Shown piece by piece: positions 9,111 through 64,000 of a DNA stretch of 64,000 nucleotides. The notes under the pieces are model-generated. The model had not been told where the DNA came from. It saw only the letters and a list, made by a program, of their open reading frames with translations, and searched no databases. Source of the DNA: Squalus acanthias (lineage: Eukaryota). The position numbers and the translations under genes are program-made. The stretch lies in the NCBI GenBank assembly GCA_030390025.1, contig CM059432.1, positions 21,392,001-21,456,000 on the forward strand. Reading direction: 5' to 3'. Each line of letters opens with the position of its first letter. Position 1 is the stretch's first letter.

Positions 9111-9422
9111 GTGCCATTTATCTCCCGGGCATCCTCCTCTCCATCAGTGAGCTGGACTATTTGTAACGGTCCACCTCCAGTCCTCTCCCTCTCCCTTGTG
9201 TTTTTCACTCTCTTCTACAAGGGGCAAAGGAACAGACCTGTGAGTGAGTGAAGGTCACGTATTCACACGATGGATGCAGTGCATTCGGTGAGGGCGACTT
9301 TCAGACAGATGCATCACATTGCATAAGGATTGGGGTGAGTGGCAGCGGCTGATGGATACATGGGGAGATGAGGAAGTGCATAGAAAGTGAAGGCAGGGTG
9401 CTACTGAAACTTAAATGGGTGT

Positions 9423-9503
9423 ACAAAAATGAGAAGTCGCACAACACCAGGTTATAGTCCAACAGTTTTATTTAAAATTACGATTTAAAATTACGATTTA
9501 AAA
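9423..9503. mobile_element. Truncated copy of the short Penelope-type element at 41941-42111
   Basis: Shares TGAGAAGTCGCACAACACCAGGTTATAGTCCAACAG; 12-bp TSD TTAAATGGGTGT at 9411-9422 and 9504-9515. Confidence 0.8.
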
Positions 9504-9621
9504 TTAAATGGGTGTGAGGAGTGATGTGATGGAGTACGCTTGACAAGACAGAGTGAAAGTGGGCGGGGACTTAAACCACAGGATGTAGTTGAATCAGCAA
9601 ATGTGCTCACTTTTCCTCACC

Positions 9622-12384: not shown

Positions 12385-14158
12385 GGGCTGGATTTTTCCA
12401 ACCTCGGCAAGTCCGGGGCAGGCAACGTCCGTGGCGTGTGGGGACCTGGCATTTGTCTCGATCCCAACCTCCAACAAGATTTTATGATGATGGGGCATAT
12501 TAAGCCCGCCCTGTGAGGTTCCTGGCCAATTAATAGGAAGTGGGTCTGATGACGTCATTTGATGACGCGTCATCAGCCGGTTTCCTTAAAGGGGCCATGT
12601 CCAAATTGATTTTGACAGTTGTGCTGTCAGTGTTCTGCAGCATTGAGGTGCTGCAAACACTGACAAGCACTGCACAGAGGTGCATGGCTGCACCCAGGCT
12701 CTCCCATGACTCCCTCCATATGCTTATGGAGGGAGTCACAGCATGCAAGGAGATTCTCTTCCCTTCCAATGGGTGGTAGTGACCTCCCCAGGAGATCAAC
12801 ACAGCCTGGTTGCACATTGCACAGGAGGGTACAAGCAGGGAGGTCATCAGGAGGACCTGGCTGCAGTGGCACAAACCTTTCAATGATCTCAGTAGATCAC
12901 AAAACGTTACTGCAAAGCCACACTCAACCTCATACTGCTTTGCCACTCATCACATCCCCATCACTCTGCCTTCCCTACCCTACTCCTGCACATCCTTACT
13001 CACACTAACTTACCTTGCACTTCCACCCATCCCTCTCTATCTACATTATCACTTCCCCATCTCACAAGCCACCCCTCACACTCACCCTCATCCTAGTCCA
13101 ATCATATCAACTAACAACACACAAGGATAGGCACTTGGGTGTTTTAGCCAATGTGTAAACTCTCTGTTAATGTGTTGTCAAGCATTGAAATCCTCATTTT
13201 CACCACTTTGCCATCTTGGACAGATTTGTGCACACCTTTGAAAGTGTCTTAGTGAGTTCCAGTGAATGGTGAGACAAAACGCCCCCACCCAATGGTGATG
13301 AGTGTGAAAGGAATGGCTTGGACATTGAAGGGATGCTTTATGGTGCTGGTGTGGGGTGGTGCCAACCTGGTGCATCATGTGGCAGTCAGGGTGTTCAGTG
13401 TTAAGTGAAGCAAATTTGAACATGGTGAGCCCATCGCTGGTGTCCCGGGCAGCAATGTGCATGGGTGCTGATGCCCTGTGTCCAGTACAATCTCAGTTGA
13501 TTGCGGAGAGGGTTAGTGTGGATGTTGGTGCTGCTGGTGTGCCCAGTATTGCTGGTGTTGGGGCTGATCATTTTGGGGTTCTGAGGACCAAGGTGAGATT
13601 TTTTCCAAGGGCTGCTGGAATAGATGGCAGGTGAGGTTGAGATGACAAGTAATCTGTCAATGTTGAGATATGTTGTTCCAAGGAGGTGACAGTGGATAGA
13701 GAGATTACTCCAAACACTTCAAAAGTGCATAAAGCTCAAAAGTGGGTTCCAAATACTGAAGGCTGAAGCTTCTGAGATTGGAAGTGACCAGCTGTAAAAT
13801 GGTAGCTTTTAGACCACTTTTGCAGCTGTAACCTATTCAAAGAAATGGAGAGTTGTTCAGAACCCGACATACTTACCTGGCGTGATCCCCAAGTGACGGG
13901 AACCTCGTGGGAAAACTTGGGAAAATGCTTTGTACCTGATAAAATGGTGATTAAATTGCTTTAAACACCCTCTTAACTAGCACAATTGCATGACCCGCCG
14001 TTTAGTGCCAGGTCTGCAAAGCGCAGGCAGAGCCGGCACGAGGGAAACTCACAAGGAGGCGGGTTTAGAGCGGGATACCGCCCCGCTGTCAATCTTTTGG
14101 ATTTTGACAGCGGACCCACCTCCGAACCCGCCCTCTGAACGCCGGCAAAATTCAGCCC
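12385..14158 (+). mobile_element. Non-autonomous Harbinger element with Myb/SANT exon remnant
   Basis: TIR GGGCTGGATTTT / AAAATTCAGCCC; TSD TCG; 12685-12890 reads MAAPRLSHDSLHMLMEGV..ILFP..RRTWLQ..FNDL with stops. Confidence 0.88.
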
Positions 14159-22664: not shown

Positions 22665-23022
22665 TTTTATTCATTCACGGGATGTGAACATCACTGATGA
22701 GGCCAGCATTTATTGCCCATCCCTAATTGCCCTCGAAGGTGGTGGTGAGCCACCTTCTTGAATATAACTGGCTAGGCCATTTCGGAGGGCAGTTAAGAGT
22801 CAACCACATTGCTGTGGGTCTGGGTAAGGACAGCAGATTTCCTTCCTTAAAGGACATTAGTGAACCAGATGGGTTTTTACAACAATCCTGTAGTTTCATG
22901 GTCACCATTACTGACACTATTCCAGATTTATTTAATTGAATTTAATTTCCCCAGCTGCCGTGGTGGGATTTGAACTCATGTCACTGGATCATTAGTCCAG
23001 TAACATAACCACTATGCTACCG
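22665..23022 (-). mobile_element. tRNA-derived SINE; related fragments at ~29860-30138 (+) and ~48700-48860 (-)
   Basis: Minus strand starts GGTAGCATAGTGGTT with B-box GAGTTCAAATCCC; shared core CTGGTTCACTAATGTCCTTTA.GGAAG; A-rich tail. Confidence 0.75.
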
Positions 23023-23994
23023 CACGCCTATAAATAAAATATTCTAAACAGAAGTGTTGTTGAGCAATTCGCTCCTCTTCAATCAATTAGCTTCTGCCCT
23101 CATTCCCTTGAAGTTTGTTTTTTTAATATTCCACATAGTTGGCTTCTGGTCTTTGATATTTCTGAATCACAGGTTATGTTGGACTTGATTCTGTGGTTGC
23201 GAACACCTGAGGGTTCCTTGAATTTCATTTCTTCTGTGCCAGAAGAGGCAATACACATCTTGACTTGGCAAGTGACTCTGACACAAGATGGTAAATTTTC
23301 CTCTTCACTGTCTGTCACAGGGCAGAACACATGCCCTTTATAGAACCCGCCTAATTTTCATTCCATTGATTGGCATACTTCATGACTCCAATCTCAGGTA
23401 CCTGTCTCAAATTTACTCTGTTACCAAGATTGCTTTCTTTTAGCTCTGCAACATTGCCCGTGTACATCCGTAACATTTCCACCCCACGGCTGAAGCCCTA
23501 GTTCATGGCTTGATCGCCTGGAAGCTTGGCTTCTTTAATACTCTCAATCCTAAACTCTTTGCTGCTGCATTCTCACCACTCATAAAGATCTGGTGTTTTG
23601 ATACTCCACATTTACTTGAAAGGGCTGCTGTATGCATCTTTTCCACTGATGGATGCATGGTCACCTACTACTTACCCCACAACAAAGGAGGTACACTAGA
23701 AAGCACCATATTGAAATGAATGATTTGTGTAGTGTGGAAAGACTGTAATGTGCAACAACACCTTGAGACAATCATTTTATTCTCCAAATCCCCATGGTCT
23801 TTTCAGCCAAGAGGCTAGGTAACTGACAGGCATCTACTGGTATCCCTCTGAATGATTCACAGAGAATTGTGTGATAGTGGTCCAGTGATAGCTCTCCCAT
23901 TGCTTTCTCCTGTGCTCTGCATAACATCTAATCCCCCACCCATTGCCTCTTTAGAGAAGTCTGGCAGATAGCTAGAACTCAGCAGCTGAAGCAT

Positions 23995-28660: not shown

Positions 28661-28719
28661 CAGATATTTATTCATTTCAACTTTTGAAAGAATTAATTGA
28701 CACAGTATTAAGAGCCTTC

Positions 28720-29506
28720 TACAAAAGCAAAATACTGCAGTTGCTGGAATTTTATCTGGAATAAAAACAGAAAATGCTGAAAATACTCAGCAGGTCAGGC
28801 AGCATCTGTAGAGAGAGAAACATAGTTATCGTTTCAGGTCGATGACCTTTCGTCAGAACTGGCAACGGTTAGAGATGTAACAGGGTTATAAGCAAGTACA
28901 GAGGCAGGGAAAGGGGGAGGGGAGGAAAGAACAAAAGGGAAGGTCTGTGATAGGGTGGAAGGCAGGAGAGATTAAATGACAAAACGTATGATAGTACAAA
29001 GCAAATGGAGATGTTAATGGGACAAGTAAAGAAACAAAAGATGGGTCTAGAGGAGGTGTAAATGGGAATAGCAGAATCATCAACAGCTGCCGTCCAAAAA
29101 AATGGGGGCAGAGGTTATGGTCTGAAATTGTTGAACTCGATGTTGAGTCCAGAAAGCTGTAAAGTGCCTAATCAAAAGAGTTTATGTTGAGCTTCTTTGG
29201 AACAGTGTAAGAGGCCGAAGACAAAGAGGTCAGAGTGGGAATGGAGTGGAGAATTAAAGTGACAGGCGACCGGGAGCTCGGGGTCACGCTTACGGACTGA
29301 ATGGAGGTGTTCTGCAAAGCGGTCACCCAATCTGCATTTGGTCTCCCCAATGTAGAGGAGACCGCATCGTGAGCAGCGAATACAGTATACAAAATTGAAA
29401 GAAGTGCAGTAAATCACTGTTTCAGCTGGAAGGAGTGTTTGGGGCCCTGGATGGTGGGAAGGGAGGAGGCAAAAGGGCAGGTGTTGCATCTCCTGCGCTT
29501 GCACGG
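28720..29506 (-). mobile_element. Penelope-like element, 5'-truncated
   Basis: GIY-YIG motif VYCIRCSRCGLLYIGETK; pseudo-LTR end; TSD GAGCCTTC at 28712-28719 and 29507-29514. Confidence 0.9.
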
Positions 29507-32319
29507 GAGCCTTCATGTGAGTCTGTTTTACATTTCCTCTACTCTTTGATGGCAAAAACTTAAAAAATGATCTTGGGGAGACACCAAGCCCCACAACAAG
29601 TAGAAGAGAAGATCAGGTGACTCACTTATTAAGGATTAGGTGATGTTAAACTTGGAGTTTACATAAATTTGCAAACTTAAAAATTGGCAGTGTTTTGTTG
29701 GAAAATTCACCAGTGCTTGCTTGCATTTGAGGAGTTAATTGCAATTGTAAATTCACACTGACTGAGTGGGGGGGCGTACTGAGTGAGATGCCCTGGGAAT
29801 TAGTTAAGCCCACTACTGTTTCTAATTTACATCACTGACTTGGATTCAGAAAACTGGTATCAGTAAAAGTGACCATCAAGTTCACTTCAGATTGTCGTAA
29901 AAACCCAACTGGTTCACTAATGTCTTTTAGGGAAGATAACCTGTGTCCTTACCTGGCCTGGCCTATATGTGACTTCAGTCCCACACTCACATAGTTGACT
30001 CCTAATTCAGCCACTCAGTTGTATCAAAAAACCTCTAGAGAAAGGCCACCACCACTTTTTAAGAGCAACTTAGGATGGACAATAAATGCCAGCCTTGCCA
30101 GCAATACCCAGATTCCAAGAATGAATAATAAAAAGAAAAAATATTATCGGGTGTTTACCGTAGATTACTTAACAGGAGTGTAATCTACATGGCCAGTAGC
30201 AAGTACAAATCAGATGAAGCCAAGATAAAACTGGATAGTGCTCTGGTCAGACCAATCTTGAGTCCTGTGTCCAGTTCTGATCACTGAGACACAAAGGAAG
30301 TATTTGTACAGAAGAGTCAAAAGACTGATTCCTAGACGCAATGCATACGGATTCCTGGGGCAGCAAGGGCACACCCCCAACATGCCATGAATGCAAGACC
30401 CTTGTGCCCACAGCATAGCTTCATCAGAAAACCTGGTGCCACCACAAATTGCCATTAAATGGGTGCAAGGCCAAGATGGCGCTTTTCTGCCACTGTTGCA
30501 CCTTGTGTGTGCCTTTGTTATCTGCGCATGGGAGTTGAATGTCAGCTTCCAAATTCCGAGCAGCCCATCTGAATGGGGGGCAATAAAACCCTAATACTAG
30601 CTATTGATTCAATAATGAGGCATTTTGCTGTTACTTCATGCCGAAAATTCAAAGTAATGGCAGAGCCAAGAGCAATATGATTAGTAATGGCGGTTAGCAG
30701 ATGACACTATGAAGCGCTGTAAAAAAGTTAATTGCCATATTGTACGAAAAGGACTCCAGCAGATTTAGTATGTGTGCGACAAATGGATAAACTTTATATT
30801 GTCATGGAATTCCATCCTTGCACATGAGATTGAAATAGTTCGATATTAGAATCATTCAGCCTGTGTATTTTGGTGCTTAAGGGTGCTATAGAACTACGAA
30901 AGCAGCATTCAATAAGGTGCTTCACAAGAGGTTAATACACAAATTTAGGGCTCATCGGATTGGGGGTAATGTATCAGCATGGATTGAGGATTGGTTAACG
31001 GACAGAAAACAGAGTAGGAATAAACGGGTCATTTTCGGCAGGCTGTAACTAGTGGAGTGCCGCAAGGATCAATGGTTGGGCCTCAGCTATTTACAATCTA
31101 TATCAATGACTTGGATGATGGGATCGAGTGTAATGTATCCAAGTTTGCTGACAATACAAAGTTAGGTGGTAAAGTAAGCTGTGAGGAGAATGCAAGGAGG
31201 CTTCAAAGGGATATAGACAGGTTAAGTGATTGGGCAAGGACATTGTAGATAGAAACATAGAAAATAGGTACAGGAGTAGACCAATCGGTCCTTCGAGCCT
31301 GCACCGCCATTCAATGCGTTCATGGCTGAACATGCTACCTCAGTACCCCATTCCTGCTTTCTCGCCATACCCCTTGATCCCCTTAGTTGTGAGTGTTATA
31401 TCTAACTCCCTTTTGAATATATTTAGCGAACTGGCCTCAACAACCTTCTGTGGAAGAGAATTCCATAGATTCACCACTCTCTGGGTGAAGAAGTTCCTCC
31501 TCAGCTCAGTCCTAAATGGCTTCCCCTTAATCCTTAGACTGTGACCCCTGGTTCTAGTTTTCCCTACCATTGGGAACATTCTGCCCGCATCTAATTTGTC
31601 TAAACCAGTCAGGATTTTAAATGTCTCTATAAGATCCCCCCTCATTCTTCTGAACTCCAGAGGATACAAGTTCAGTTGACCCAATCTTTCTTGATATGTC
31701 AGTCCGGCCATCCCAGGAATCAATCTAGTGAACCTTCGCTGCACTCCCTCAATAGCAAGAATGTCCTTCCTTAAGTTAGGAGACCAAAACTGCGCACAAT
31801 ACTCCAGGTGTGGCCTCACCAAGGCCCTGTACAACTGTAGCATCACCTCCCTACTCCTGTACTCAAATCCCCTTGCTATGAAGGCCATCATTCCGTTTGC
31901 TTTCTTGACTGCCTGCTGCACTTGCATTCCCACCTTCAGTGACTGATGTACCATGACGCCCAGGTCTCGTTGCACGTCCCCTTTCCCTAATCTGCCACCA
32001 TTCAGGTAATAGTCCGCCTCTCTATTTTTACCACCAAAGTGGATAACCTCACATTTATCCACATTGTACTTCATCTGCCATACATTTGCCCATTCACCCA
32101 ACCTGTCCAAGTCACTCTGTAGCCTCCTAGCATCCTCCTCATTGTTCACACTGCCTCCCAATTTAGTGTCATCCGCAAATTTGGAGATATTACATTTAAT
32201 CCCTTCGTCCAAATCATTAATATATAATGTAAACAGCTGGGGTCCCAGCACCGAACCCTGCGGTACCCCGCTGGTCACTGCCTGCCATTCTGAAAAGTAC
32301 CCATTTACTCCTACTCTTT

Positions 32320-33730
32320 TACGATAGCAAAATACTGCGGATGCTGGAAATCCGAAATAACAACAGAAAACGCTGGAAAAACTCAGCAGGCCAGGCAGCA
32401 TCCGTGGAGAGAGAAAGAGAGTTAACGTTTCAGGTCGATGACCTTTCATCAGAACTGGGAAGAGCCGGAAATCAAATAGATTTAAGGCCAGGGTAAAGCT
32501 GGGAAAAGGGGGAGGGGATAAAGGAACAAAGGGGGAGATGAAGAGACATTAAGAGATATGCAAGGCTAGAGGTGGTGTTAATGTGACAGATTAAGGCTGA
32601 ATGAAGTGTGAAATCCACTGGCAGAATGAAGGACAGCTGCCAGCTTCTAGGAGGAAAAAAAAAGGTGGGGGGGGACAAATAAAAGGGTGGATAAAATAAA
32701 ATATAAATGTGATTGGAGCTGAGGTTATGATCTAAAATTGTTGAACTCGATATTGAGTCCAGAGGGCTGTAGCATGCCTAAACGAAAGATGAGCTGCTGT
32801 TCCTCGAGCTTACGCTGTGCTTCCGTGGAACAGTGTAATAGGCCAAGGACGGTGAGGTCAGAGTGGGAGTGAAGCGATGAATTAAAGTGACAGGCCACCG
32901 GGAGCTCGGGGTCCCCCTTACGGACTGAACGGAGGTGTTCCGCAAAGCGGTCACCCAATCTGCGTTTGGTCTCCCCAATGTAGAGGAGTCCACATCGTGA
33001 GCAGCGAATACAGTATACTAAATTGCAGGAAGTACAAGTAAATCGCTGTTTAACCTGGAAGGGGTGTTTGGGGCCCTGGACAGTGGGAAGAGGGGAGGTA
33101 TAAGGGCATGTGTTGCATCTCCTGCGCGTGCACGGGAAGGTGCCGGGCAAAGGGGAAGGGGTGCTGGGGGTGGTAGAGGAGTGGACTAGGGTGTCGCGGA
33201 GGGAGCGGTCCCTACAGAATGCTGAAAGGGGAGGTGAGGGGAAGATGTGTTTGGTGGTTGGATCACGCTGGAGGTGGCGGAAATGGCGGAGGATGATCCG
33301 TTGAATGTGGAGGCTGGTGGGGTGAAAGGTGAGGACAAGGGGAACCCTATCGTGGTTCCGGGAGGGAGGGGCAGGGGTGAGGGCAGATGTGCGGGAGATA
33401 GAACGGACACGGTCGAGGGCCGTGTCGACCACGGTAGAGGGGAATCCTCGGTTGAGGAAAAAGGAAGACATGTCGGAAGCACTGGTATGGAAGGTGGCAT
33501 CATCAGAGCAGATGCGGCGGAGACGGAGAAACTGGGAGAATGGAATAGAGTCCTTACAGGAGGCGGGGTGGGAGGAAGTGTAGTCCAGGTAGCTGTGGGA
33601 GTCGGTGGGCTTGTAGTGAATGTTAGTCAATAACCTATCCCCAGAGATGGAGATGGAGAAGTCGAGGAAGGGAAGGGAAGAGTCGGAGATGGACCATGTG
33701 AAGGTGAGGGAAGGGTGGAAATTGGAAGCA
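32320..33730 (-). mobile_element. Penelope-like element (RT C-terminus + GIY-YIG; ORF 32725-33630 open)
   Basis: YKPTDSHSYLDYTSSHP...NLVYCIRCSRCGLLYIGETKRRLGDRFAEH...GLN; 11-bp TSD TCCTACTCTTT at 32309-32319 and 33731-33741. Confidence 0.95.
32420..32456 (-). ncRNA. Minimal hammerhead ribozyme motif in the Penelope pseudo-LTR
   Basis: AGUU-CUGAUGA-A-AGGUC-AUC-GACCU-GAAAC-GUU-AACU: core boxes, helix I AGUU/AACU, helix II AGGUC/GACCU, palindromic helix III AACGUU. Confidence 0.8.
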
Positions 33731-36395
33731 TCCTACTCTTTGTTTCCTGTGTGCCAACCAGTTCTCAATCCACGTCAACACATTACCCCCAATCCCATGT
33801 GCTTTAACTTTGCTCACCAATCTCTTGTGTGGGACCTTGTCGAAGGCCTTCTGAAAGTCCAAATACACCACATCTACTGGTTCCCCCCTGTCCACCCTAT
33901 TGGAAACATCCTCAAAAAATTCCAGAAGATTTGTCAAGCATGATTTCCCTTTCACAAATCCATGCTGACTTGGACCTATCATGTCGCCACTTTCCAAATG
34001 GTCTGTTATGACATCTTTAATAATTGCTTCCATCATTTTACCCACGACCGATGTCAGGCTGACCGGTCTATAATTCCCTGCTTTCTCCCTCCCTCCTTTT
34101 TTAAAAAGAGGGGTTACATTGGCCACCCTCCACTCCATCGGAACTGATCCAGAGTCTAAGGAATGTTGGAAAATGATCGTCAATGCATCCACTATTTCCA
34201 AGGCCACCTCCTTAAGTACTCTGGGATGCAGACCATCAGGCCCTGGGGATTTTTCAGCCTTCAGTCCCATCAATTTCCCCAATACCTTTTCCCGACTAAT
34301 AAGGATTTCCCTCAGCTCCTCCCTCTTACCAGATCCTCTGACCCCTTTTATTTCCGGCAGGTTGTGTGTGTCCTCCACAGTAAACACCGAACCAAAGTAC
34401 TTGTTCAATTGATCAGCCATTTCCTTGTTCCCCATTACGACTTCCCCTGTTTCCGACTGCAGGGGACCTACGTTTGTTTTTACTAAGCTCTTTCTTTTTA
34501 CATATTTATAGAAGCTTTTGCAGTCCATTTTAATGTTCTCTGCAAGCTTCCTTTCATATTTTATTTTCCCTGCCCTAATCAAACCCTTCGTCCTCCTCTG
34601 CTGAGTTTTGAAGTTCTCCCAGTCCCCGGGTTTGCTGCTACTTCTGGCCAATTTGTATGCAACTTCCTTGGTTTTAATACTATCCCTGATTTCCCTTGTT
34701 AGCCATGGTTGAGCCACCTTCCCTTTTTTATTTTTACGCCAGACCGGGATGTACAATTGTTGTAGTTCATCCATGCGATCTCTAAATGTCTGCCATTGCC
34801 CTTCCACTGATAGCCCCTTAAATATCGCTTGCCAATTTAACCTCGCCAATTCACGCCTCATACCCTCAAAGTTGCCCTTATTTAAGTTCTGGACCATGGT
34901 CTCTGACTTAACTGTTTCCTTCTCCATCCTAATGTAGAACTCCACCATACTATGGTCACTCTTCCCCAGGGGGCCTCGTACCACAAGATTGCTGATTAGT
35001 CCCTCCTCATTACACAACACCCAGTCCAGGATGGCCTCCCCTCGAGTTGGTTCCTCAACATATTGGTTTAGGAAACCATCCCTTAAACACTCCAGGAAAT
35101 CCTCCTCCACCGTATTGCTTCCAGTTTGAGTAGCCCAATCTATATGCATATTAAAGTCACCCATGATAACTGCCGTGCCTTTTTTGCACGCACCTCTGAT
35201 TTCCTGTTTCATACCCTCCCCCACCTCACTACTGCTGTTTGGAGGTCTGTACACAACTCCCACTAACGTTTTCTGCCCTTTGGTGTTCTGCAGCTCAACC
35301 CATATTGATTCCACATCCTCCAAGCTGATGTCCTTCCTAGCTATTGCATTAATCTCCTCTTTAACCAGCAATGCTACCCCACCCCCTTTTCCTTTTATTC
35401 TATCCTTTCTGAATGTTGAATACCCCTGGATGTTCAGTTCCCAGCCTTGATTGTTCTGGAGCCACGTCTCTGTAATCCCAATCACATCGTATCCGTTAAC
35501 ATCTATTTGCACAGTCAATTCATCCACCTTATTACGGATACTCCTTGCATTAAGACACAGAGATAGAATATAATGTGGAGAAATATGAAGTTATTCACTT
35601 TGGTAGGAAAAATAGAAAAGGAAAATTATTTTTAAAATGGTGAGAGACTGGGAAATGTTGGTATTCAGAGGGACCTTGGTGTTCTTGTACACAAAATACT
35701 GAAAGTTAACATGCAGGTACAGCAAACAATTAGGAAAGCAAATAGTATGTTAGCCTTTATTACAAAGGGATTACAGTATAAGAGTAGAAGTCTTACTACA
35801 ATTATATAGGGCCTTGGTGAAACCACACCTGGAATATTCTACAGTTTTGGTCTCCTTACCTAAAGAAGGATATACTTGCCTTAGAGGAAGTGCAATGTAG
35901 TTTTACTAAACTGATTCATGGGATGAGGGGATTGTCCTACGAGGAGAGATTGAGCAGACTAGGCCTATATTCTCTAGAGTTTAGAAGTATGAGAGGTGAT
36001 CGAATTGAAACATGTTGGCCCAGAAATTAAACACTGAGGGGGAAAAATTAGGTCGCGCCCCATTTGGGGCGCAAATATCGTCTGGACGCAAAAATTAGCG
36101 CCTGGCGCTAATTATCGCCACTGACTGGAAACTTCACTTTTACCGCCCCGGGAGGTGAGTGGAGCGCTAAATCAGGCGCTGCACACCTGTCTTAAGGCGC
36201 AAAGGCCGAGCAGTGAGGCGCTAACTCAGCGCGCGAGCGCAGCGCAGGTGCTGCCAGTTAGCGAGGGAACACAGACACACTGGCGCCGGCCAGTTCTTAA
36301 AGCGGGGGGGCCAACTTGCTCCCCAGCCAAACCCTACTCATTGCAGCCTTGAATCTCGGCCTGGAGAGACCTGTGAATCCATTTTGCTGCCAAGG

Positions 36396-38269
36396 ATGGA
36401 GAGGGTGAGAGAACGAGCTCAGCGCTTCACCGAGCGGGCCTTGGATGCTCTGGTTGGCGCGGTGGAGCGCAGAAGATCTATACTCTTCCCTGAGAGTGGC
36501 AGGAGGCCTTTGCCACGCGAGTACAGAAGAGTGTGGAGGGAGGTGGCTCAGAGCATCTCCTCCAGGAGCATGGTGCCCAGGACCCATGTTCAATGCCGCA
36601 AAAAGTTCAACGACCTCACTCGGGTCGTCAGGGTGAGTGGCTTTTTCTCAATACCTCTCCATCCCTCCATCTCAACCTCACTCTATGGCCAGAGGGTCTT
36701 AAAACCCCAATGCACAACACTCATCCAACACCTATGGCCCTTTCATGAAACACACACACACATTCCACACTTTGCATACAGTAAGGGCTATTCACCTATG
36801 GGAGGCACATCAGGCAAGACCATGGCTGCATACAGTAAGGGCTATTCACCTATGGGAGGCACATCAGGCAAGACCATGGCTGCATACAGTAAGGGCTATT
36901 CACCTATGGGAGGCACATCAGGCAAGACCATGGCTGTATATTTACTCAGATGCTGTCCTTTTACTTGCAGGCCAAGCTGGCGCATAATAGGAGACAGCAG
37001 CAACGGACAGGTGGAGGGCGGCCTCAGCTGCAACCCCTCAGCGATCTTGAGGAGCGCGTCCACAGGATTGTGGCAAGCCGGGTGATCGGTCCCGTCGCCA
37101 CTGGAGACGCCGACCCCGTTCTGGACAGCAATGGTAAGGTCATCACCTTTTTGTCCTCTGTCCTTCCACTTGTCCCTCACAACACCAGCCTTTGACACTT
37201 TCAATCCAACTTGCTAACTCGCTGCACTTATTCCTCCCTTACTGCCACCCTGTCCTCACGCTAATGCCACTCTTGTACCTCCCTGCTTTCAGATGGTGAT
37301 TCACCAGCTGAGGAGACGGGCCCTGAAGCTGCCAGTGGGAGTGAAGCTGCAGCCGAGGAGGAAGAGGAAGCCGGAGCATCAGTGCCACCCTCTCCCGAGG
37401 AAGCCCATGCCCACACTGGGAACACGCCTTCCCTGGAGGGGAGCAGTGGGGAAGGGTCTGATGAGGGTGAAGCTCCAGGACCCAGCGGGCTGCAGCAATG
37501 CCATGGGGGTAGGGAAGAACGGGGGCCTTCTCCCCAGAGGGAGAGTATGCCAGCGACTCCTACTGCAATGGACGCAGAGGAGGAGCGGCTGATCGCAGAA
37601 ATGAACACCCAGGCGGTGGGCATGCACACTGAGCTCATGGGTGCAGTGGGAAGGGTGCCCGAATGCATTGAGTCACTGGCAAGGAGTGTGGAGCACTTCG
37701 CTGTAGCACAGGCGGATGCCACACTAACGCTTAGTGCTGCAATTCAGTCACTGACTGCCGTGATCCCATCTCTGACTGCTCTCATGCAGACTCAGATTGA
37801 GGCCACGCGAGCACTGACTGCTGCCAACCTCGATGGTTTGTTCACATGTCCCCGGGGCTCTCACCGCGCCGCAGCAGGCCAGCAATCTGTGCCCCAGCAG
37901 ATTGCTCCGGATGCTGAAGTGCTGCCCCGTGGGAGTGCCAGTGTGTTGGGCGAGCAGGGAGTTGCTGTCCTCTCTCACGATGACAGCATTCCTGCTGCCA
38001 ACACTGTCACTTCTCCACTGCACTTGCCACCGCCTGTAGGACAGACTGCTGCCGCCCATGCAGAGTTGGTGCAGTCTGCAGCCGGGCCCTCCAGGCCCAG
38101 AACTGGTCGAGGCCGTCCTTCAGGGGCATCTGCAGTGTCAGGGTCTGACAATCAGCAGCCTTCCACCAGCCTTGCTGCAGCCACTGAGGTCCCATTACGG
38201 AGGAGCAGTAGGGTTAGAAGGGGGGAAGTGCGCAAGGGAAGGAGATCACCCTCGAAGGGCAAAAAGTAG
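36396..38269 (+). CDS. Harbinger Myb/SANT (trihelix-like) DNA-binding protein, 3 exons (36396-36632, 36971-37133, 37293-38269), 458 aa
   Basis: MERVRERAQRFTERALDALV..W..VA..RTHVQCRKKFNDL; GT-AG junctions in phases 0 and 1 join into one 1377-nt frame; basic C-terminus RRSSRVRR..KGKK. Confidence 0.88.
36773..36936. repeat. 54-bp tandem repeat, 3 copies, in Myb intron 1
   Basis: TGCATACAGTAAGGGCTATTCACCTATGGGAGGCACATCAGGCAAGACCATGGC three times, identical by eye. Confidence 0.95.
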
Positions 38270-38581
38270 GAGGTGTGACAAAATGCTGGTCATTTTTTTA
38301 TTAAAGGCCGAGGTTCGTGGTCCAACTTTTGCCTAGTGTTTTGGACATTATCTCCAGGTTGTGAGAACCAGTTATGTTAATGACTGTTTTTTTGTGTTTA
38401 TTTCTATGAGTTTGTCATGAGGAAATGACACACACAGAGTTTGTAAAATAAATACGTTTTTGTATTCAAAATATACATGTTTGGTGTTTGGAATCATTGG
38501 TGCCTTGGCCGGCTTAGGGGTTGCGTGCTGGGTTCATTGATGTTGTTAGCAATGGCAGAAGCCATTTCCACAGCAGGGGCC

Positions 38582-39742
38582 CTAGAAGCGGCTTGCTATC
38601 AGCCGTTGACGGACGGCCCTTGCAGTTTCACCATTGTGGGCCGCCCTCCCGCCTTGGTGCTGCTGATGATCATCCTCCTCGTCCTCTTCCTCCTCTTCCT
38701 CCTCCTCCTCTGGTGGTGCTCCAAGGCCTGGTGGCATTGGCTGGGTCCTGACGATTGCCATGTTATGCAACATGCAGCACACAACTACGAAGTTGGATAC
38801 TCGCTCAGGCGAGTACTGCAGGGCTCCTCCAGAATGGTCGAGACAGCGGAACCGTTGCTTCAGCACGCCAATTGTGTGCTCAATGATGTTCCTGGTAGCT
38901 TGATGGCTCTCGTTGTACCGCAGCTCAGCAGGGGTGTTGGGCGTACGGAGCGGTGTCATCAGCCAGGTGCTCAATGGATACCCCTTGTCCCCGAGAAGCC
39001 AACCAACTGGCTGATGCGGTGCCTCAAAAAGTTCTGCCACAGTAGTCTGGCGCAGGATGAAAGCATCGTGGCAGCTGCCAGGATAGTGGGCATTGACAGC
39101 GAGTATCAGCTGTCTGTGGTCACAGACCAACTGAACATTCAAGGAATGGAACCCCTTTCTGTTCCGGAATTCCTCGGCATTCTCATGTGGAGCACGCAAA
39201 GCCACATGCGTGCAGTCAATGGCGCCCTGCACCATGGGGAAGCCTGCTATCCTCGCAAAGCCCAGAGCGCGGTCACGCTGCTTGTCTGGGGTCATGGGGA
39301 AAGAGATGAACTCTCGTCTCCTTTTAAAGAGGGCATTTGTGACCTGCCGGATGCAGCAATGCACCGCGAACTGGGAGATATTGGCGAGGTCCCCAGCAGC
39401 AGCTTGAAATGAGCCAGTAGCATAGAAGTTGAGAGCCACTGTGACCTTCACTGCCACCGACAGAGACGTCCTGGACCTCAGTTGAGGCTGCAGATCTGGC
39501 TGCAGCAGGTGGCAGAGCTCAGTGACCACCTCCTTGCTGAATCGCAGCCTTCGCAAACACAGCTCCTCAGACATATGAATGTAGGAGAGCTGTTCACGAT
39601 ATACCCTGGGAGGGTAAGCTCTCCTGTACATACGCCTGTTGGCCCTCCTCTGTCTGGCCATCATTGCCACTCTCTCTCTGCGTCTCTGTGTCCTCCGATT
39701 CAGCTGGAGCAGGACGACGCCCCCAATCAGTGCAGCCCCCAT
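38582..39742 (-). CDS. Harbinger DDE transposase (HARBI1-like family), 386 aa, intact
   Basis: First ATG at 39742; N-terminal LRFSKEVV..L region; catalytic motifs GAIDCTHV, LLGDKGYP and RNIIEHTIGVLKQRF; no stops. Confidence 0.95.
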   Translation of the reverse strand: MGAALIGGVVLLQLNRRTQRRRERVAMMARQRRANRRMYRRAYPPRVYREQLSYIHMSEELCLRRLRFSKEVVTELCHLLQPDLQPQLRSRTSLSVAVKVTVALNFYATGSFQAAAGDLANISQFAVHCCIRQVTNALFKRRREFISFPMTPDKQRDRALGFARIAGFPMVQGAIDCTHVALRAPHENAEEFRNRKGFHSLNVQLVCDHRQLILAVNAHYPGSCHDAFILRQTTVAELFEAPHQPVGWLLGDKGYPLSTWLMTPLRTPNTPAELRYNESHQATRNIIEHTIGVLKQRFRCLDHSGGALQYSPERVSNFVVVCCMLHNMAIVRTQPMPPGLGAPPEEEEEEEEEDEEDDHQQHQGGRAAHNGETARAVRQRLIASRF

Positions 39743-41940
39743 AGTCTCTTTGCAAGCAAAGTTATGAAGGACAGCAACCAAAGTACCAGCGAAGTTAGGA
39801 TCAGTAGGCAAAACTACCTCACACAGCGTTGACTCAATGCAGAAGTCTCTCTTTCTCTCTCTCCGAATCTCTCTCTCTCTCTCAGAACGAGTGGTGCAAA
39901 AATGTCAACCACAGAAAAAGACAGGAAGAGGCCCCCTTTAAATAGCGCCCCCCCCAGCCCCACAGCGATTGATAGCGTTCCAGTCTTCCGGTCGTTGGAT
40001 GCGCCAGGCGGTAAGGCAGGGGGCGCCACTCAATTTCCGCTCCGAGGCGCCACAAGGGCGTTGCACCATGGAATGACGTCACAATCAGCGGTAAAGTTTA
40101 GCGCCGCCGCACAATGTCTAGTTAAGTTCCCGAGCGGCGCAAACATCGCTGCGCCCGGGCGCTAGCGGCTTTGCGCCCCATTAGCGCCCTCTTAAGGCGC
40201 TAACGGGAGGCGCAACCAACTGAATTTTTACCCCTGAGTCTTCACGCGGGGGTAAGGCTTCCCCGCGATATCTCACTCCGCGCCTACCTTTTTCCTCCGA
40301 GCCCACACAAACTTTAGTTTCAAGGCTGCAGCTGTGCAGTGCTTGCGTGACCCAGAGACGCAATTAGTTCGTGCGAGCTCTGGGATCACGTGATTCAGTT
40401 AGAGCCAATGGCAGCACACCATCTTTCATTCATAGTTTTCACAGCAAGAGCTGTCAAAGCTTTGAATACTATACCCCCCCAAAAGAACAGCTAAAGCTCA
40501 ATTAAATTAAAAAAAGCCATCACATTAATAAAATAAGTATAGTTAAATAAATTAACCACTTTAAACAAAAAATTAAATTTTTGAAAAAATTTGAAATCTT
40601 TTTAAAAGTTATAAAAATAAACTTACCTTTCTTTAAAGTCTCTAAAAAAGATAAACCTGTTGAAAATTTTTTAAAATAATACTTAATTAACTACTTACCT
40701 TGTTAAAAGAGGGTCTTACGCCTCCTTTCTTTATGTGTAAAATCTTCCATGCTTACCTGCGCGTTCAAAGCACTAAGTGCACTGCGTGCGCGCAGCCTGT
40801 AGCGCGCACGCGATTCACTTAGGAACCGCCCCCTTTTGAATTCACGAAGTGCCGGTTTCCCACGCATGCGCAGTGCATGCTGGAAACCGGCAATTGGAGA
40901 CCTAAAACGTGAGAGTACACAGTGCGTACTCTCGCGTATTAGGTCTAATTTTCAGGCCATAAAATTCTTACAGGGCTTGACAGGGTGGATACTGGGAGGA
41001 TGTTTCCCTTGGCTGGGGAGTCTAGAACCAGGGGTCACAGTCTGAGAATAAGGGGTTGGCCATTTAGGACTGAGATGAGGAGAAAGTTCTTCACTCAGAG
41101 GGTGGTGAATCTTTGGAATTCTCTACCCCAGAGGGCTGTGGAGGCTCAGTCGTTGAGTTTATTCAAGAAAGAGATATATTTTTGGATACTAAGGGAATCA
41201 AGGGATATGGGGATAGTCAGGAAAGTGGAGTTGAGGTAGAAGATCAGCCATGATCTTATTGAATGGCGGAGCAGGCTCGAAGGGCCGAATGGCCTACTCC
41301 TGCTTCTATTTCTTATGTTCTTATTAGTAAATAATGGTTTAGCTTCCCGCCAAGGCTATATAGTTTATAGTTTAAATGCAGCCAGAATCCAGAGTCAGGG
41401 CCCAATATAATCAAAGTGATGTGAGACTCCCTGAGACAGGGGGCTGGATTTTACCAACCTCGGCAGGGCCGTGGCGGGTCCCGACCCCGCTGCTGGCTCC
41501 AGCCTGCTGTCCAAAATGATTTTCCACTGATTGGGCTTGTTTGCCGGCCAGCACGTTTGCCAGCCAATTGATGATGCGTCATCAGTTGGTTTCCCTAAAG
41601 GGACTTTGCGCAAATTGATTTTGACAGTCACAGCACACAGGGAGTATCTCTTCCCTTCCAATGGGTGGAAGAGACCTCCCCGGGAGACCAACGCAGCCTG
41701 GTTGCACAATACACAGGAGGACATAAGCAGGGATGTCATCAGGAGGACCAGGCTGGAGTAGCACAAACATTTCAATGATCTCAGTAGATCACGAAACGTT
41801 ACTGCAAAGCCACACTCAACCTCATCCTGCTGTGCCACTCCTCACATCCCCATCACTCTGCCTTCCCTACCCTACTCCTGCACATCCTTACTCACACCAA
41901 CTTACCTTGCACCTCCACCCATCCCTCTCTATCTACATTG

Positions 41941-42111
41941 ATGTGGAGGTGCCGGTGTTGGACTGGGGTGGACAAATGTGAGAAGTCGCACAACACCAGG
42001 TTATAGTCCAACAGTCGAAGGACTTCACCTGACGAAGGAGCAGCACTCCGAAAGCTTGTGATTTCAAATAAAACTGTTGGACTATAACCTGGTGTTGTGC
42101 GACTTCTCACA
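41941..42111 (+). mobile_element. 171-bp non-coding Penelope-type element containing a hammerhead
   Basis: 13-bp TSD TCTATCTACATTG at 41928-41940 and 42112-42124; 38-bp inverted arms 41977-42014 and 42074-42111; empty site visible in the paralog near 13036-13050. Confidence 0.88.
42025..42061 (+). ncRNA. Minimal hammerhead ribozyme motif
   Basis: UCAC-CUGACGA-A-GGAG-CAGCA-CUCC-GAAAG-CUU-GUGA; helix I UCAC/GUGA, palindromic helix III AAGCUU. Confidence 0.82.
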
Positions 42112-42289
42112 TCTATCTACATTGTCACTTCCCCATCTCACTAGCCACCCATCACACTCACCCTCATCCTAGTCCAATCAAACCAACTAACAACACACAA
42201 GGGTAGCCACTTGGGTGTTTTGGCAAATGTTCATGTAAAGCTTCTGCTAATGTGCTGTCAAACATTGAAACCTTTATTTTCAACACTTT

Positions 42290-43130
42290 GGGCTCAAATT
42301 TCCAAGCCCCGAGGAGACGGGTTTGGAGGCGGGAGTGGTGGGAAAATTGCAGATTCAGGGGGCACGTACCCATCCCGCCCCCAACCCACCTCCATGCCAA
42401 TGTCCCAGGAGGCGGGTACCCGACCTGTGCTGGGAGCCGCCTCCCCGAGGCGGGAAGGGGATTAGTGCCAATTAACTGCCTGTTAACAGGTAGTTAACAG
42501 GCAGTTTTTTGGCTAATCCCTATTTTTAGCCCTGAAGTGTGGGCTGCCCGACGGCTCCAAACCACGGCAAGTTAGCGAGGTGGACCGTCGGTCTGCAGGG
42601 CTTGGAGGGGTCGAGATGTCTGGAGTACAGGTGAGTGATGGGTGCATGAGTGCAGAGGTAAGTGTGTTTGGTGTGTCTAAAGTGTTTTAATAAGTTTTAC
42701 TTACCTTTACTTTCTCCTCCAGGCTTCCTCCCTTCAGTTCTCGAGAGTACCTCAGCTCACCGGCACAGAAAGCAGAATGGCCGCTGAGCTGTCAAAAGCT
42801 GCAGCCTCTGCTTTCTGGTCTGGAGAGCTGTCTAACTGAGTCTGAGTAGAAGGACTCAAGTTAGAAGACAGATTGTCAGTGTTTGACAGCTTCACAGAGC
42901 TGTCAAACGCTGATATTTCATCTGTCAACAGCTCTTGACAGATGAAATGTCAATTGCTGACGTCACCAGTATCCAAGTGTCCCTTAATTGGCCTGCTGAG
43001 CCCGCTGGGCGGGCTTAACAAGGTCAATCAAGGGAAAGTAGCGTGGGTTGGCCACAAATCGATGGAGGCGGGACTACAACCCAAAAAGTGGGAGTCCCGC
43101 CTCCACATCCCCATTGACAAAATCGAGCCC
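42290..43130. mobile_element. 841-bp Harbinger-type MITE
   Basis: TIR GGGCTCAAATTT / AAAATCGAGCCC; TSD TTT; shares its internal palindrome with 25364-26229. Confidence 0.9.
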
Positions 43131-50562: not shown

Positions 50563-51557
50563 TACAGAAAACGCTGGAAAAACTCAGCAGGCCAGGCAAC
50601 ATCCGTGGAGAGAGAAACAGAGTTAACGTTTCAGGTCGAAACCCTTCGTCGGAACTGAGAGAAAAGCAAGAAATTAAACAGATAAAAATGCAAGGGGGAG
50701 GCTGGGGGGAGGAATAAAAGAACAAAAGGGTTGGTCTATGGTAAGTAGAGACATTAAGAGATGCTCAAGGCAAGACGAGATGGTAATGGGACAGGTTAAG
50801 TAACAAAAGCTGAGGTGTGAAAAGCTGGCAGAATGAGACAGCTGCCGTATGGGGAGAGAGAGAAAGAAAAAAAAAGGAAAAAGGCAAGGACCAAAAGGGG
50901 TGGATAAAATGTATATATATGTGGGAGGGGCCGACGTTATGATCTGAAATTGTTGAACTCGATATTGAGTCCGGAAGGCTGTAATGTGCCTAAACGAAAG
51001 ATGAGGTGCTGTTCCTCGAGCTTACGCTGAGCTTCCGTGGAACAATGCACGAGGCCGAGGACGGTGAGGTCTGAGTGGGCGTGGAGGGGTGAATTAAAAT
51101 GACAAGCGACCGGAAGCTCGGGGTCATCCTTACGGACTGAACGGAGGTGTTCTGCAAAGCGGTCACCCAATCTGCGTTTGGTCTCCCCAATGTAGAGGAG
51201 ACCACATCGTGAGCAGCAAATACAGTATACTAGATTGCAAGAAGTACAAGTAAATCGCTGTTTCACCTGGAAGGGGTGTTTGGGGCCCTGGAGAGTGGGA
51301 AGGGGGGATGTATAAGGGCATGTGTTGCATCTCCTGCGCTTGCACGGGAAGGTGCCGGGTGAAGGGGAAGGGGTGCTGGGGGTGATAGAGGAGTGGACTA
51401 GGGTGTCTCGGAGGGAGCGGTCCCTACGGAATGCTGAAAGGGGAGGTGAGGGGAAGATACGTTTGGTGGTGGGATCACGTTGGAGGTGGCGGAAATGGCG
51501 GAGGATGATCCGTTGAATGTGGAGGCTGGTGGGGTGAAAGGTGAGGACAAGGGGAAC
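50563..51557 (-). mobile_element. Penelope-like element, 5'-truncated
   Basis: GIY-YIG ORF 50937-51557 nearly identical to 32725-33345; hammerhead variant at 50621-50656. Confidence 0.93.
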
Positions 51558-51967
51558 TTTTGGGGGCAGCTGCAAGTAGTTCGGGCCACTAAATCACAGG
51601 AAGGATTGCTATGGAGAGATTTGAGACTTCTTACAGAAGGGTCAAAGAAGTTGGTTTTGTTTTCTTTAGTAAAGAGGAGACTTTGAAAAGGAAATTACGC
51701 TCCTGGATGCAGATATTAGATTAGATAGATCTCAAAAATATCCACAGTTTAAATAGTGCACAGTGCAGCCTGTATCTTGCTAGGAGAGAGGTGAAATCAT
51801 GCACATTTTATTGAACTGGGCATGGGACATGTGAGTCTTTGCCTCCAAGTATAGTATTATGGCTCAAGAGAAGAGCTCAAAGGTATTGATTAGAGGATAC
51901 AAGCGGCATCTGTCCCAATTCTTGGAGGTGGATGTAACTCTCGCTTGGACACAGTCCTTCAGTAAGT

Positions 51968-61619: not shown

Positions 61620-62161
61620 GAAAGAACTTGCTTTTATATTGAGCTTTTTACACCTAACGTCCCAAAGCACTTCACGGTCAATGATATACTTTTGAAGTAT
61701 AGTCACTAATGTTATAATGCAGGGAAATGTGCAACCAATCTGTGTGCAGTAAGGTTCCACATGATTATATAATCCATAAACAAAAGCAAAATACTGCGGA
61801 TGCTGGAAATCTGAAATAAAAACAGACAATGCTGGAAACACTGAGTGGGTCAGGCAGCGCCTGTGGAGAGAGAAACAGAGTTAACGTTTCAGGTCGATGA
61901 CCTTTCAAAAGAACTGGAAAAAGTTAGAGCTATAACAGATTTTAAGCAAGTGCAGAGGTAGGGAAAGGAGGGAGGGGAGGGAAAGAACTCCCCATTATAT
62001 AATCTGTTTTTATGTGTTGGTTGAGGGGTAAATAATGGCCAGGACACCAGGAAAAATGAGATCTTCTACATCCACCGGAGAGGCCAGACGGAGCCTCGGT
62101 TTAATGCCTCATCTGAAAGATAGCACCTCGAACAGTGCAGCACTCCCTCAGCATGGCACTG
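61620..62161 (-). mobile_element. Deu-domain SINE split by a Penelope pseudo-LTR fragment (61775-61993)
   Basis: SINE halves resemble 14180-14550; 11-bp TSD ATTATATAATC at 61764-61774 and 61994-62004. Confidence 0.75.
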
Positions 62162-62254
62162 AAATATTTCCTCAGTACCACACTTTTACTTCTAAAACAT
62201 TACTTACTACATTCTTGTTAACATTGCTCTGTATCAGTACTACTTTGTGGCATA

Positions 62255-62710
62255 CAATAGCAAAATACTGTGGATGCTGGAAATCTGAAATAACAACAGA
62301 AAATGCTGTCCTCGGCCTCTTACACTGTTCCATTGAAGCTCAACGTAAGCTCGAGGAACAGCACCTCATCTTTCGATTAGGCACTTTACAGCCTTCTGGA
62401 CTCAACATTGAGTTCAACAATTTCAGACTATAACCCCAGCCCCCCATTTTTCAGGCTGTTAATGATTCTGCCATCCCCATTTGCAACATTTAATCTCTCC
62501 TGCCTCCTACCCGAGTACAGACTGTTCCTTCAGCTCCTTTCTCCCCTCCCCTCCCCCTTTTCCTGCCTCTGCACCTGCTTAAAACCTGTTACATCTCAAA
62601 CCTTTTCCAGTTCTTATGAAGGGTCACAGACCTGAAACGTTAACTCTGTTTCTCTCTCCACGGATGCTGCCTGGCCTGCTGAGTGCTTCCAGCATTTTCT
62701 GTTGTTATTT
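62255..62710 (+). mobile_element. Short Penelope copy with an inverted partial pseudo-LTR at its 5' end
   Basis: KLEEQHLIFRLGTLQPSGLNIEFNNF; inverted GAAATAACAACAGAAAATGCTG; 15-bp TSD CTACTTTGTGGCATA. Confidence 0.9.
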
Positions 62711-63289
62711 CTACTTTGTGGCATATATCTGTTACATTTACAACTTTCCATATGTACTGGCTGCTCCTTTACAATAATATGTATCCCTTACCTTTGTACC
62801 CTTCTTTAAGATGGAATTTTCTCTGTTGGCACTGAGCCAATTGCTGCTACAATTCAGTACTCCACTGCTTTATTTATTAACAATCTTTATGGCATTCATG
62901 TTGATTAACTGGCTCGTTGGCTACTTGAGAAGCTTTAAAGGCTCATTATTACAGGTGCTATTTGTGTTTGTTATCACCAATGGAATCACATGCAAAAGAA
63001 CTGTTTCAAACATATGGGCCACGATATTTACAGGGAGGCGGGGAGGGTGCGGGGGAGGCTGAAAAGGGCCGAAGATTATGTTCGACAGCACCACATTATC
63101 ATTTTATTCTTTCATTTCCCATCCGGCAGCCGGTAAAATTGACAGCCTGGCTGACGGCTGGGAGGGAACACCGGCAGGAGAAGGCCGAGGCCAGGGGCTC
63201 TTGGGGACGGTCCCCAGCAATCGGGAGGGGGAAGATCGGAGATCGGGCCTGCGGGGGTGGTAGGTCGGCAACTGAGACTAGGGAATAGG

Positions 63290-64000
63290 CTGCGATCGGA
63301 AGGGGGGAGAGAGGCAGGGGATCGGGAGGGGGAGAGAGGTTGGTGATTGGGAGAGAGAGAGAGGTCGGGGAGCGGGAGGGGTAGAGAGGTCGGTGATTGG
63401 GAGAGGGAGAGAGGTCGGTGATCAGCAGGGGGAGAGAGGTCGGTGATTGGGAGAGGGAGAGAGGTCGGTGATCGGGAGGGGGAGACAGGTCGGTGATCGG
63501 GAGGGGAGAGGGTCGGTGATCGGGAGGGGGAGAGAGGTCGGGATCGAGAGGGGGAGAGAGGTCGGGGATCGGGAGGGGGAGAGAGGTCGGGATCGAGAGG
63601 GGGAGAGAGGTCAGTGATCGGGAGGGGGAGAGAGGTCAGTGATCGGGAGGGGGAGAGGGGTCGGGGATCGGGAGGGGGAGAGAGGTCTGGGATCGGGAGG
63701 GGGAGAGAGGTCGGGGATCGGGATGGGGAGAGAAATCGGGAATCGGGATGGGGAGAGAGGTCAGTGATCGGGAGTGAGAGAGGTCGGGGATCGGGAGAGG
63801 GAGAGGGGTCGGTGATGGGGAGAGGGAGAGAGGTCGGTGATCAGCAGGGGGAGAGAGGTCGGTGATCGGGACAGGGAGAGTGGTCGGTGATCGGGAGGGG
63901 GAGAGAGGTCTGGGATCGGGAGGGGGAGATAGGTCGCGGATCGGGAGGGGGAGAGAGGTCGGGGAACGGGAGGGGGAGAGAGGTCGGGGATCGGGAGGGG
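63290..64000. repeat. G-rich minisatellite with ~25-bp unit, probably inside a MITE starting near 63016
   Basis: (GATCGGGAGGGGGAGAGAGGTCGG[T/G])n continuing to the window end. Confidence 0.93.

Follow-up and report, generated by a model that had tools for sequence, protein, structure and literature searches.

A 171-bp hammerhead-bearing insertion in Squalus acanthias as a probable fold-back copy of a Penelope-like element end

Penelope-like elements (PLEs) leave insertions of a recognizable layout, in which an inverted, 5'-truncated copy lies at the 5' end and a tail of 30-40 bp is often present at one end only (PMC8557442; PMC3846280), and short fold-back PLE insertions are a kind already known. 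In D. virilis, a 34-bp repeat is located at the start of the open reading frame (ORF) (PMC2377424). The PLE protein of the anole cuts and extends both strands, with two internal starts that bound the tail, and it prefers uncleaved RNA, while the hammerhead of this element cleaves only with the protein (PMC11167929). Non-LTR retrozymes are defined by at least two consecutive head-to-tail units that each carry a hammerhead, by a hammerhead of the canonical type I, and by a fixed, amplified monomer (PMC7229834; 10.64898/2026.07.22.740005).

The window analyzed here is a stretch of 64,000 nt from Squalus acanthias (assembly GCA_030390025.1, contig CM059432.1, positions 21,392,001 to 21,456,000 of the forward strand), and coordinates refer to positions within it. 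At 41941-42111 lies a 171-bp insert in which one high-copy repeat end is present twice, first as an inverted copy that bears the tail and then as a forward copy that bears the hammerhead, the whole being set between target-site duplications (TSDs). The features of the insert, its host and its relatives in the window are given below.

41591..41806 (+): host sequence lying 135 nt upstream, the decayed Myb/SANT-like part of a Harbinger-type element
41928..41940 (+): left TSD, 13 bp, whose last 2 nt also match the 3' end of the family
41941..41975 (-): inverted 35-nt "tail" of the probable PLE end, on the left side only, the right arm having no counterpart
41976..42015 (-): inverted arm, a perfect reverse complement of 42073-42112
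42016..42021 (+): junction filler CGAAGG, 6 nt, with the same letters as 42033-42038 and not family sequence
42022..42111 (+): forward arm, corresponding to the pseudo-LTR (pLTR) from an initiator-like base to the inner end and without a tail
42025..42061 (+): minimal type I hammerhead motif with predicted cleavage after 42057, fitting the consensus in Fig. S3 of PMC4209133
42112..42124 (+): right TSD, 13 bp
13036..13047 (+): empty site in a paralogous host copy, with a single target copy (12/13 bases)
9411..9515 (-): sibling insertion with its TSDs, comprising 81 nt at 9423-9503 and the 12-bp TSD TTAAATGGGTGT

The flanks of the insert are exact 13-bp copies of TCTATCTACATTG at 41928-41940 and 42112-42124, in agreement with the initial annotation of this DNA; as background, a 13-mer is repeated exactly 100-300 nt downstream at 86 of 63,599 window positions. 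The left boundary of the insert can be placed only to within 2 nt, since the family's own end shares TSD bases 41939-41940. The inverted repeat pairs 41976-42015 with 42073-42112. Its arms had been described as perfect over 38 bp, and the perfection holds while the length does not, with 40 bp measured, 39 of them within the insert. The arms are separated by 57 nt, and the junction is not a palindrome. Read in order, the insert consists of the inverted tail and inverted arm (75 nt together), the 6-nt filler and the forward arm, with the tail present only on the left side and the hammerhead only on the right. Where the insert meets its target, there is a 1-nt match at the inner site and a 2-nt match at the tail end. 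The insert has a GC content of 48.5% and is devoid of coding sequence. The one-sided 35-nt tail and the filler at 42016-42021 are anatomy beyond that which the initial annotation had described.

The host is recognizable from its own relatives in the window. The stretch at 41591-41806 matches the Myb_DNA-bind_5 ORF at 36225-37085 (35% over 72 aa, E 5e-8, tblastn), and a paralogous copy is 92% identical over 314 nt to the left of the insert and 88% identical over 180 nt to the right. An empty site had been proposed near 13036-13050, and the paralog indeed features one target copy there, at 13036-13047, with 12 of 13 bases; the ends of the empty site also occur in 58 and 141 contigs in two sequencing runs of relatives. 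An inverted, 5'-truncated arm of 75 nt at the 5' end, a one-sided tail of 35 nt and a 13-bp TSD with a paralogous empty site are all features of EN+ PLE insertions. The earlier view of the insert as a retroelement, in the sense of a retrotransposed insertion, is borne out, and the insertion is very probably that of a PLE end with a putative coding parent.

The truncated sibling reported at 9423-9503 is present as well, with a 12-bp duplication and 98% identity to the insert over 49 nt, and it lacks the hammerhead. Its homology begins near the predicted cleavage site (the equivalent of 42058) and is preceded, at its 5' end (9470-9506), by 2.8 copies of a 13-nt unit, while its end matches the target at 5 of 6 positions a few bases beyond the inner site. 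The idea that copies start at the cleavage site was set aside, the sibling being its one example; the aligned stretch in the relatives ended at 42072, which places copy starts past approximately 42053 outside its view.

Both window copies of the family follow a decayed Harbinger-type Myb/SANT exon, at distances of approximately 96 and 135 nt, and share the orientation of the host (n = 2, and Harbinger DNA is common here). In a Harbinger-type element at 36225-39904, the DDE_Tnp_4 transposase frame is open over 440 aa, a Myb/SANT gene lies convergent to it, and a 54-nt unit is present in 3.1 copies at 36773-36940. Elsewhere in the window, a tRNA-like sequence at 22958-23026 (-), which scores 26.3 bits and falls under the Rfam gathering score, is possibly the head of a tRNA-derived SINE, and a 25-nt minisatellite of 28.5 copies fills 63294-64000 and continues past the window end.

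The CUGACGA and GAAA boxes with helices I and II, as well as the loop-less palindromic helix III, were correctly noted in the initial annotation and are located at 42025-42061. Helix I is formed by TCAC/GTGA (42025-28 / 42058-61, 4 bp) and is followed by CTGACGA at 42029 with an extra A, by helix II (GGAG/CTCC) and by GAAA; helix III is the palindrome AAGCTT, and the triplet CUU ends at 42057. When the whole insert is folded, helices I and II have pair probabilities of 0.94-1.0 (0.94 for helix I). A descriptor of the minimal hammerhead finds two sites in the window, at 42029 (+) and 32452 (-), and none in 300 block-shuffled windows. The motif has the CUGANGA box with an extra base, the G-C first pair of helix II, GAAA, an NUH triplet, a palindromic loop-less helix III and a short helix I, and all of its positions agree with the published consensus for minimal PLE hammerheads (PMC4209133), which upholds its earlier assignment to this type. 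A search of the whole window against Rfam at E<=1 returned no hammerhead family and four weak, unrelated matches, and no helix III of the active dimer emerged when two copies were cofolded, a pairing that thermodynamic folding would not be expected to reveal. In published work, a monomeric minimal hammerhead did not cleave and dimers cleaved little (PMC4209133), while 8 of 9 predicted frog retrozyme dimers showed no cleavage (10.64898/2026.07.22.740005). Self-cleavage of the lone insert copy by this predicted ribozyme is therefore doubtful.

Sequencing runs of relatives, which are not shown to be Squalus acanthias, provide a wider view of the family. Part of 41600-42500 is contained in 20 of the 24 listed runs (9 studies), and four runs (X1, X2, X15 and X21) were aligned to 41820-42072 at 85% likeness; the individual runs, in no stated order, yielded 12,321, 7, 1,127 and 32,404 aligned records, host flank included. 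X20 (share 0.05) and X22-X24 (share 0.00) were not among the four. X15 consists of contigs and is possibly an RNA run, although it may be DNA. Differences from the window copy are near-fixed at 41949 (X1 and X15) and at 41980 and 41988 (X2). The family is hugely abundant in these runs and extends beyond both ends of the insert, with 30 letters visible past each family end. Copies that end at 41939 with unlike flanks are found in 97, 633 and 22 contigs (agreement 0.36-0.41) and in 3 reads. In three of the four runs an ATG, the first downstream of the hammerhead, directly follows the tail as the last consensus letters (agreement 0.36-0.41), while the fourth run, with 3 reads, differs. In the upstream direction, X2 continues past 42022 in 142 contigs (agreement 0.57) and at 42024 and 42026 in 81 and 76 contigs (agreement 0.44 and 0.41). 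The 33-nt tail at 41971-41939 is doubled head to tail in 7 contigs of X2, and related joints have 7-10 extra letters between the copies.

The insert junction itself is rare in these data. Summed contig depth, which does not equal copy number, is 762, 44 and 8,964 at junction position 42016 and 1.12 million, 33,477 and 6.26 million at 42045 in the three contig runs, so that the junction falls below 0.15% of family depth in all three and is no amplified unit in these relatives. The natural order, from 42072 to 42014/42015 on the opposite strand, is found in 44 (X1), 100 (X2) and 7 (X15) contigs and in 1 read (X21). Fold-back order also occurs at other breakpoints, with at least 12 joints of 1-2 contigs each and sides of only 19-27 nt. 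Nine of the 12 joints listed, beside which there are another 45, have unknown letters between the sides; two of the other three are without the CUGANGA box and one has it. These joints, short as their sides are, and the different start of the sibling indicate variable 5' truncation among copies.

A second PLE family in the window serves as an internal control and is represented by five copies.

28712-29514: truncated copy, TSD of 8 bp
32309-33741: truncated copy, TSD of 11 bp, with an intact hammerhead at 32452 (-)
50564-51560: truncated copy, TSD not found
61764-62004: non-coding stump, TSD of 11 bp, with a degenerate hammerhead
62240..62725 (+): fold-back insertion, TSD of 15 bp, with an inverted arm at 62255-62308 that bears a 32-nt tail

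The last of these repeats the layout of the insert, its forward copy, which has no tail, comprising a GIY-YIG C-terminus and a degenerate hammerhead; the GIY-YIG match of this family (E 2-3e-4) is just under the Pfam cut-off. One of the five hammerheads passes the descriptor. The longest match between the ends of the two families is at most 16 nt, and the proposal that the insert belongs to a family different from the coding Penelopes here is accordingly sustained. Coding sequence is present in four of the five copies of the second family vs. neither of the two window copies of the insert's family.

The initial annotation had viewed the insert as an independent, retrozyme-like mobile element, which would be a self-cleaving unit that amplifies in tandem and moves via circular RNA. 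The insert does share a hammerhead, a long TSD, the lack of coding capacity and a GC content of 48.5% with such elements, and retrozymes derived from PLE pLTRs have been reported from one chondrichthyan (10.64898/2026.07.22.740005). Against this stand three departures from the retrozyme definition, in that the locus contains no tandem unit, the single hammerhead is of the minimal rather than the canonical type (which has a longer helix I and a looped helix III), and no amplified monomer is seen in the relatives, where the junction is scarce, 12 other breakpoints with fold-backs are listed, and the family extends both upstream and downstream. The two arms are also head to head, and the coding family of the window has left a non-coding hammerhead stump (61764-62004) and the same fold-back layout (62240-62725). 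The claim of an independent unit is thus not upheld, and a retrozyme origin appears extremely improbable.

A further alternative keeps the PLE ancestry and proposes as the parent a short, non-autonomous derivative with a promoter, hammerhead and tail but no ORF, which a coding PLE would have moved in trans, the insert being one fold-back copy. Non-autonomous PLE derivatives exist (PMC8557442; 10.64898/2026.07.22.740005), neither window copy is coding, and searches linked no ORF to the family. The frame running into the post-tail ATG had no matches among longer proteins (2 candidates scored), near-length proteins or 1.84 billion representatives, although these searches were weak because the query held only 25 family codons in addition to host codons. 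Exact-pattern scans gave 0 and 0 matches in viral contigs and 0 and 0 in metagenome contigs; five matches to a 20-mer in bacterial genomes, none of which covers more than 29 nt of the element, were taken as chance. The ATG that follows the tail in three of four runs and the upstream continuation of the family speak against a parent without an ORF, and the stump at 61764-62004 demonstrates that a coding family can leave non-coding remains. A non-autonomous parent is thus quite unlikely.

Taken together, these observations suggest that the insert is probably a single, dead-on-arrival pLTR insertion of a coding PLE, and two primings are the likely route of its formation. The left arm has the tail and the right arm has the hammerhead, indicating that neither was copied from the other. 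The GIY-YIG/RT protein of the parent would nick both target strands approximately 11-13 bp apart. The end of the bottom strand would then prime at the inner site, 42111, with its 1-nt match, and copy through the uncleaved hammerhead to 42022, while the end of the top strand would prime at the tail end with its 2-nt match, a point approximately 35 nt farther downstream on the RNA, and copy 75 nt, after which the two cDNA ends would be joined via the 6-nt filler. The hammerhead would be a passenger in this process, as its helix III presumably cannot close unaided and would depend on another copy or on the PLE protein. The insert is without the family's upstream TATA-like box and thus is not expected to be transcribed on its own. 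Twin priming is a term from LINE-1 work. Searches of the openly accessible literature listed no paper on twin priming in PLEs or on this shark-type family.

The same PLE-end identity is compatible with another route, namely fold-back of a single cDNA, either onto itself or onto an antisense template, followed by endonuclease resolution that leaves a one-sided tail. Published interpretations of the inverted junction lean this way: palindromic junctions of rotifer PLEs led to a proposal of self-priming (PMC3846280), and EN-mediated resolution has been put forward for the tail (PMC8557442). The 6-nt filler repeats a nearby hexamer, as would be expected of template slippage. In the insert, however, the junction is not palindromic and the arms are 57 nt apart, and a target-primed cDNA that starts at 42111 contains no tail to copy. 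The anole protein, moreover, extends both strands in vitro (PMC11167929). Fold-back of one cDNA is thus an unlikely source of the insert.

A further point concerns the base at which the forward arm starts. In the X2 consensus upstream of 42022, TATATAT begins exactly 30 nt above this position, and the consensus also supplies the rest of an initiator-like TC-ACTTC, in which the A corresponds to 42022, the first base of the forward arm. In 5/5 copies of the second family, helix I carries an initiator-like motif with a TATA-like box at -29/-30 from it, though these copies are related and the pattern was chosen after the fact; the background frequency of the -30/+1 spacing is 0.09% (loose) or 0.006% (strict). 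In a rotifer pLTR, a TATA box lies 20 bp from a TCACT (PMC3846280). It is conceivable, if somewhat doubtful, that the RNA starts at 42022, at helix I, and that the forward arm is a run-off ("strong-stop"-like) cDNA as opposed to a random truncation. A PLE promoter with a TATA-like box at -30 and an initiator at +1 would then start the RNA at helix I of the hammerhead, and internal priming approximately 90 and 125 nt downstream, just before the start codon, would be followed by run-off at the RNA 5' end. Direct evidence for this comes from one copy, and 0/5 second-family copies start at +1. Also counting against run-off, the promoter of D. virilis has no TATA box, and its start precedes helix I by an intron and at least 46 nt (PMC2377424; PMC4209133).

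As fold-back PLE insertions are known as a kind, the insert matters little by itself. It is nonetheless an unusually clean single event, as the junction can be read together with its empty site and the two points of priming. In bulk, such mini-insertions could test two primings against fold-back as the source of inverted pLTRs, as well as whether solo hammerheads are run-off products of the pLTR promoter. If true, twin priming combined with run-off would generate promoterless hammerhead hairpins in bulk and explain why such genomes contain so very many solo minimal hammerheads. A short hammerhead insert in these genomes that has flanking TSDs but no tandem unit should not be counted as a retrozyme.

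Of the known systems, non-LTR retrozymes (Cervera and De la Pena, 2020, PMC7229834; Li et al., 2026, 10.64898/2026.07.22.740005) are like the insert in that they are non-coding, carry a type I hammerhead, have a long TSD and are related to PLE pLTRs. Retrozymes are head-to-tail repeats with a hammerhead, mostly canonical, in each unit, whereas the insert is a head-to-head fold-back with a single minimal motif. Closer in the ribozyme are the minimal hammerheads of metazoan PLEs (Cervera and De la Pena, 2014, PMC4209133), which share CUGANGAH, G10.1-C11.1, GAAAN, the palindromic 15.2-16.2, a short helix I and an AU-rich 3' side, with a turtle example having the same GAAA-G-C-U-U; the 56-motif alignment, as far as that source is drawn on here, includes no cartilaginous fish, and the motif of the insert is a predicted ribozyme. 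PAc, a Poseidon PLE of Anolis carolinensis (Frangieh et al., 2024, PMC11167929), resembles the insert in its two internal starts bounding the tail, the priming of both strands, an AC-rich start region and a template whose hammerhead is uncleaved. The PAc ORF begins within the hammerhead, and the start sites are found 111-118 nt after its beginning, whereas the first ATG of the insert's family is at the tail end; the tail region of the insert folds into no significant stem-loop (z -1.1 and +0.55). Finally, compared with EN+ PLE complex insertions (Arkhipova et al., 2013, PMC3846280; Craig et al., 2021, PMC8557442), the insert is unusual in being 171 bp long and non-coding, with a 6-nt filler, a non-palindromic junction and a parent ORF that is not seen, and TSDs are 11-13 bp here as opposed to 8-10 bp in the published cases. 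Despite these differences, the insert shares with them the inverted, 5'-truncated copy at the 5' end, the one-sided tail and the TSD, as well as the pLTR hammerhead and the TATA- and initiator-like motifs.
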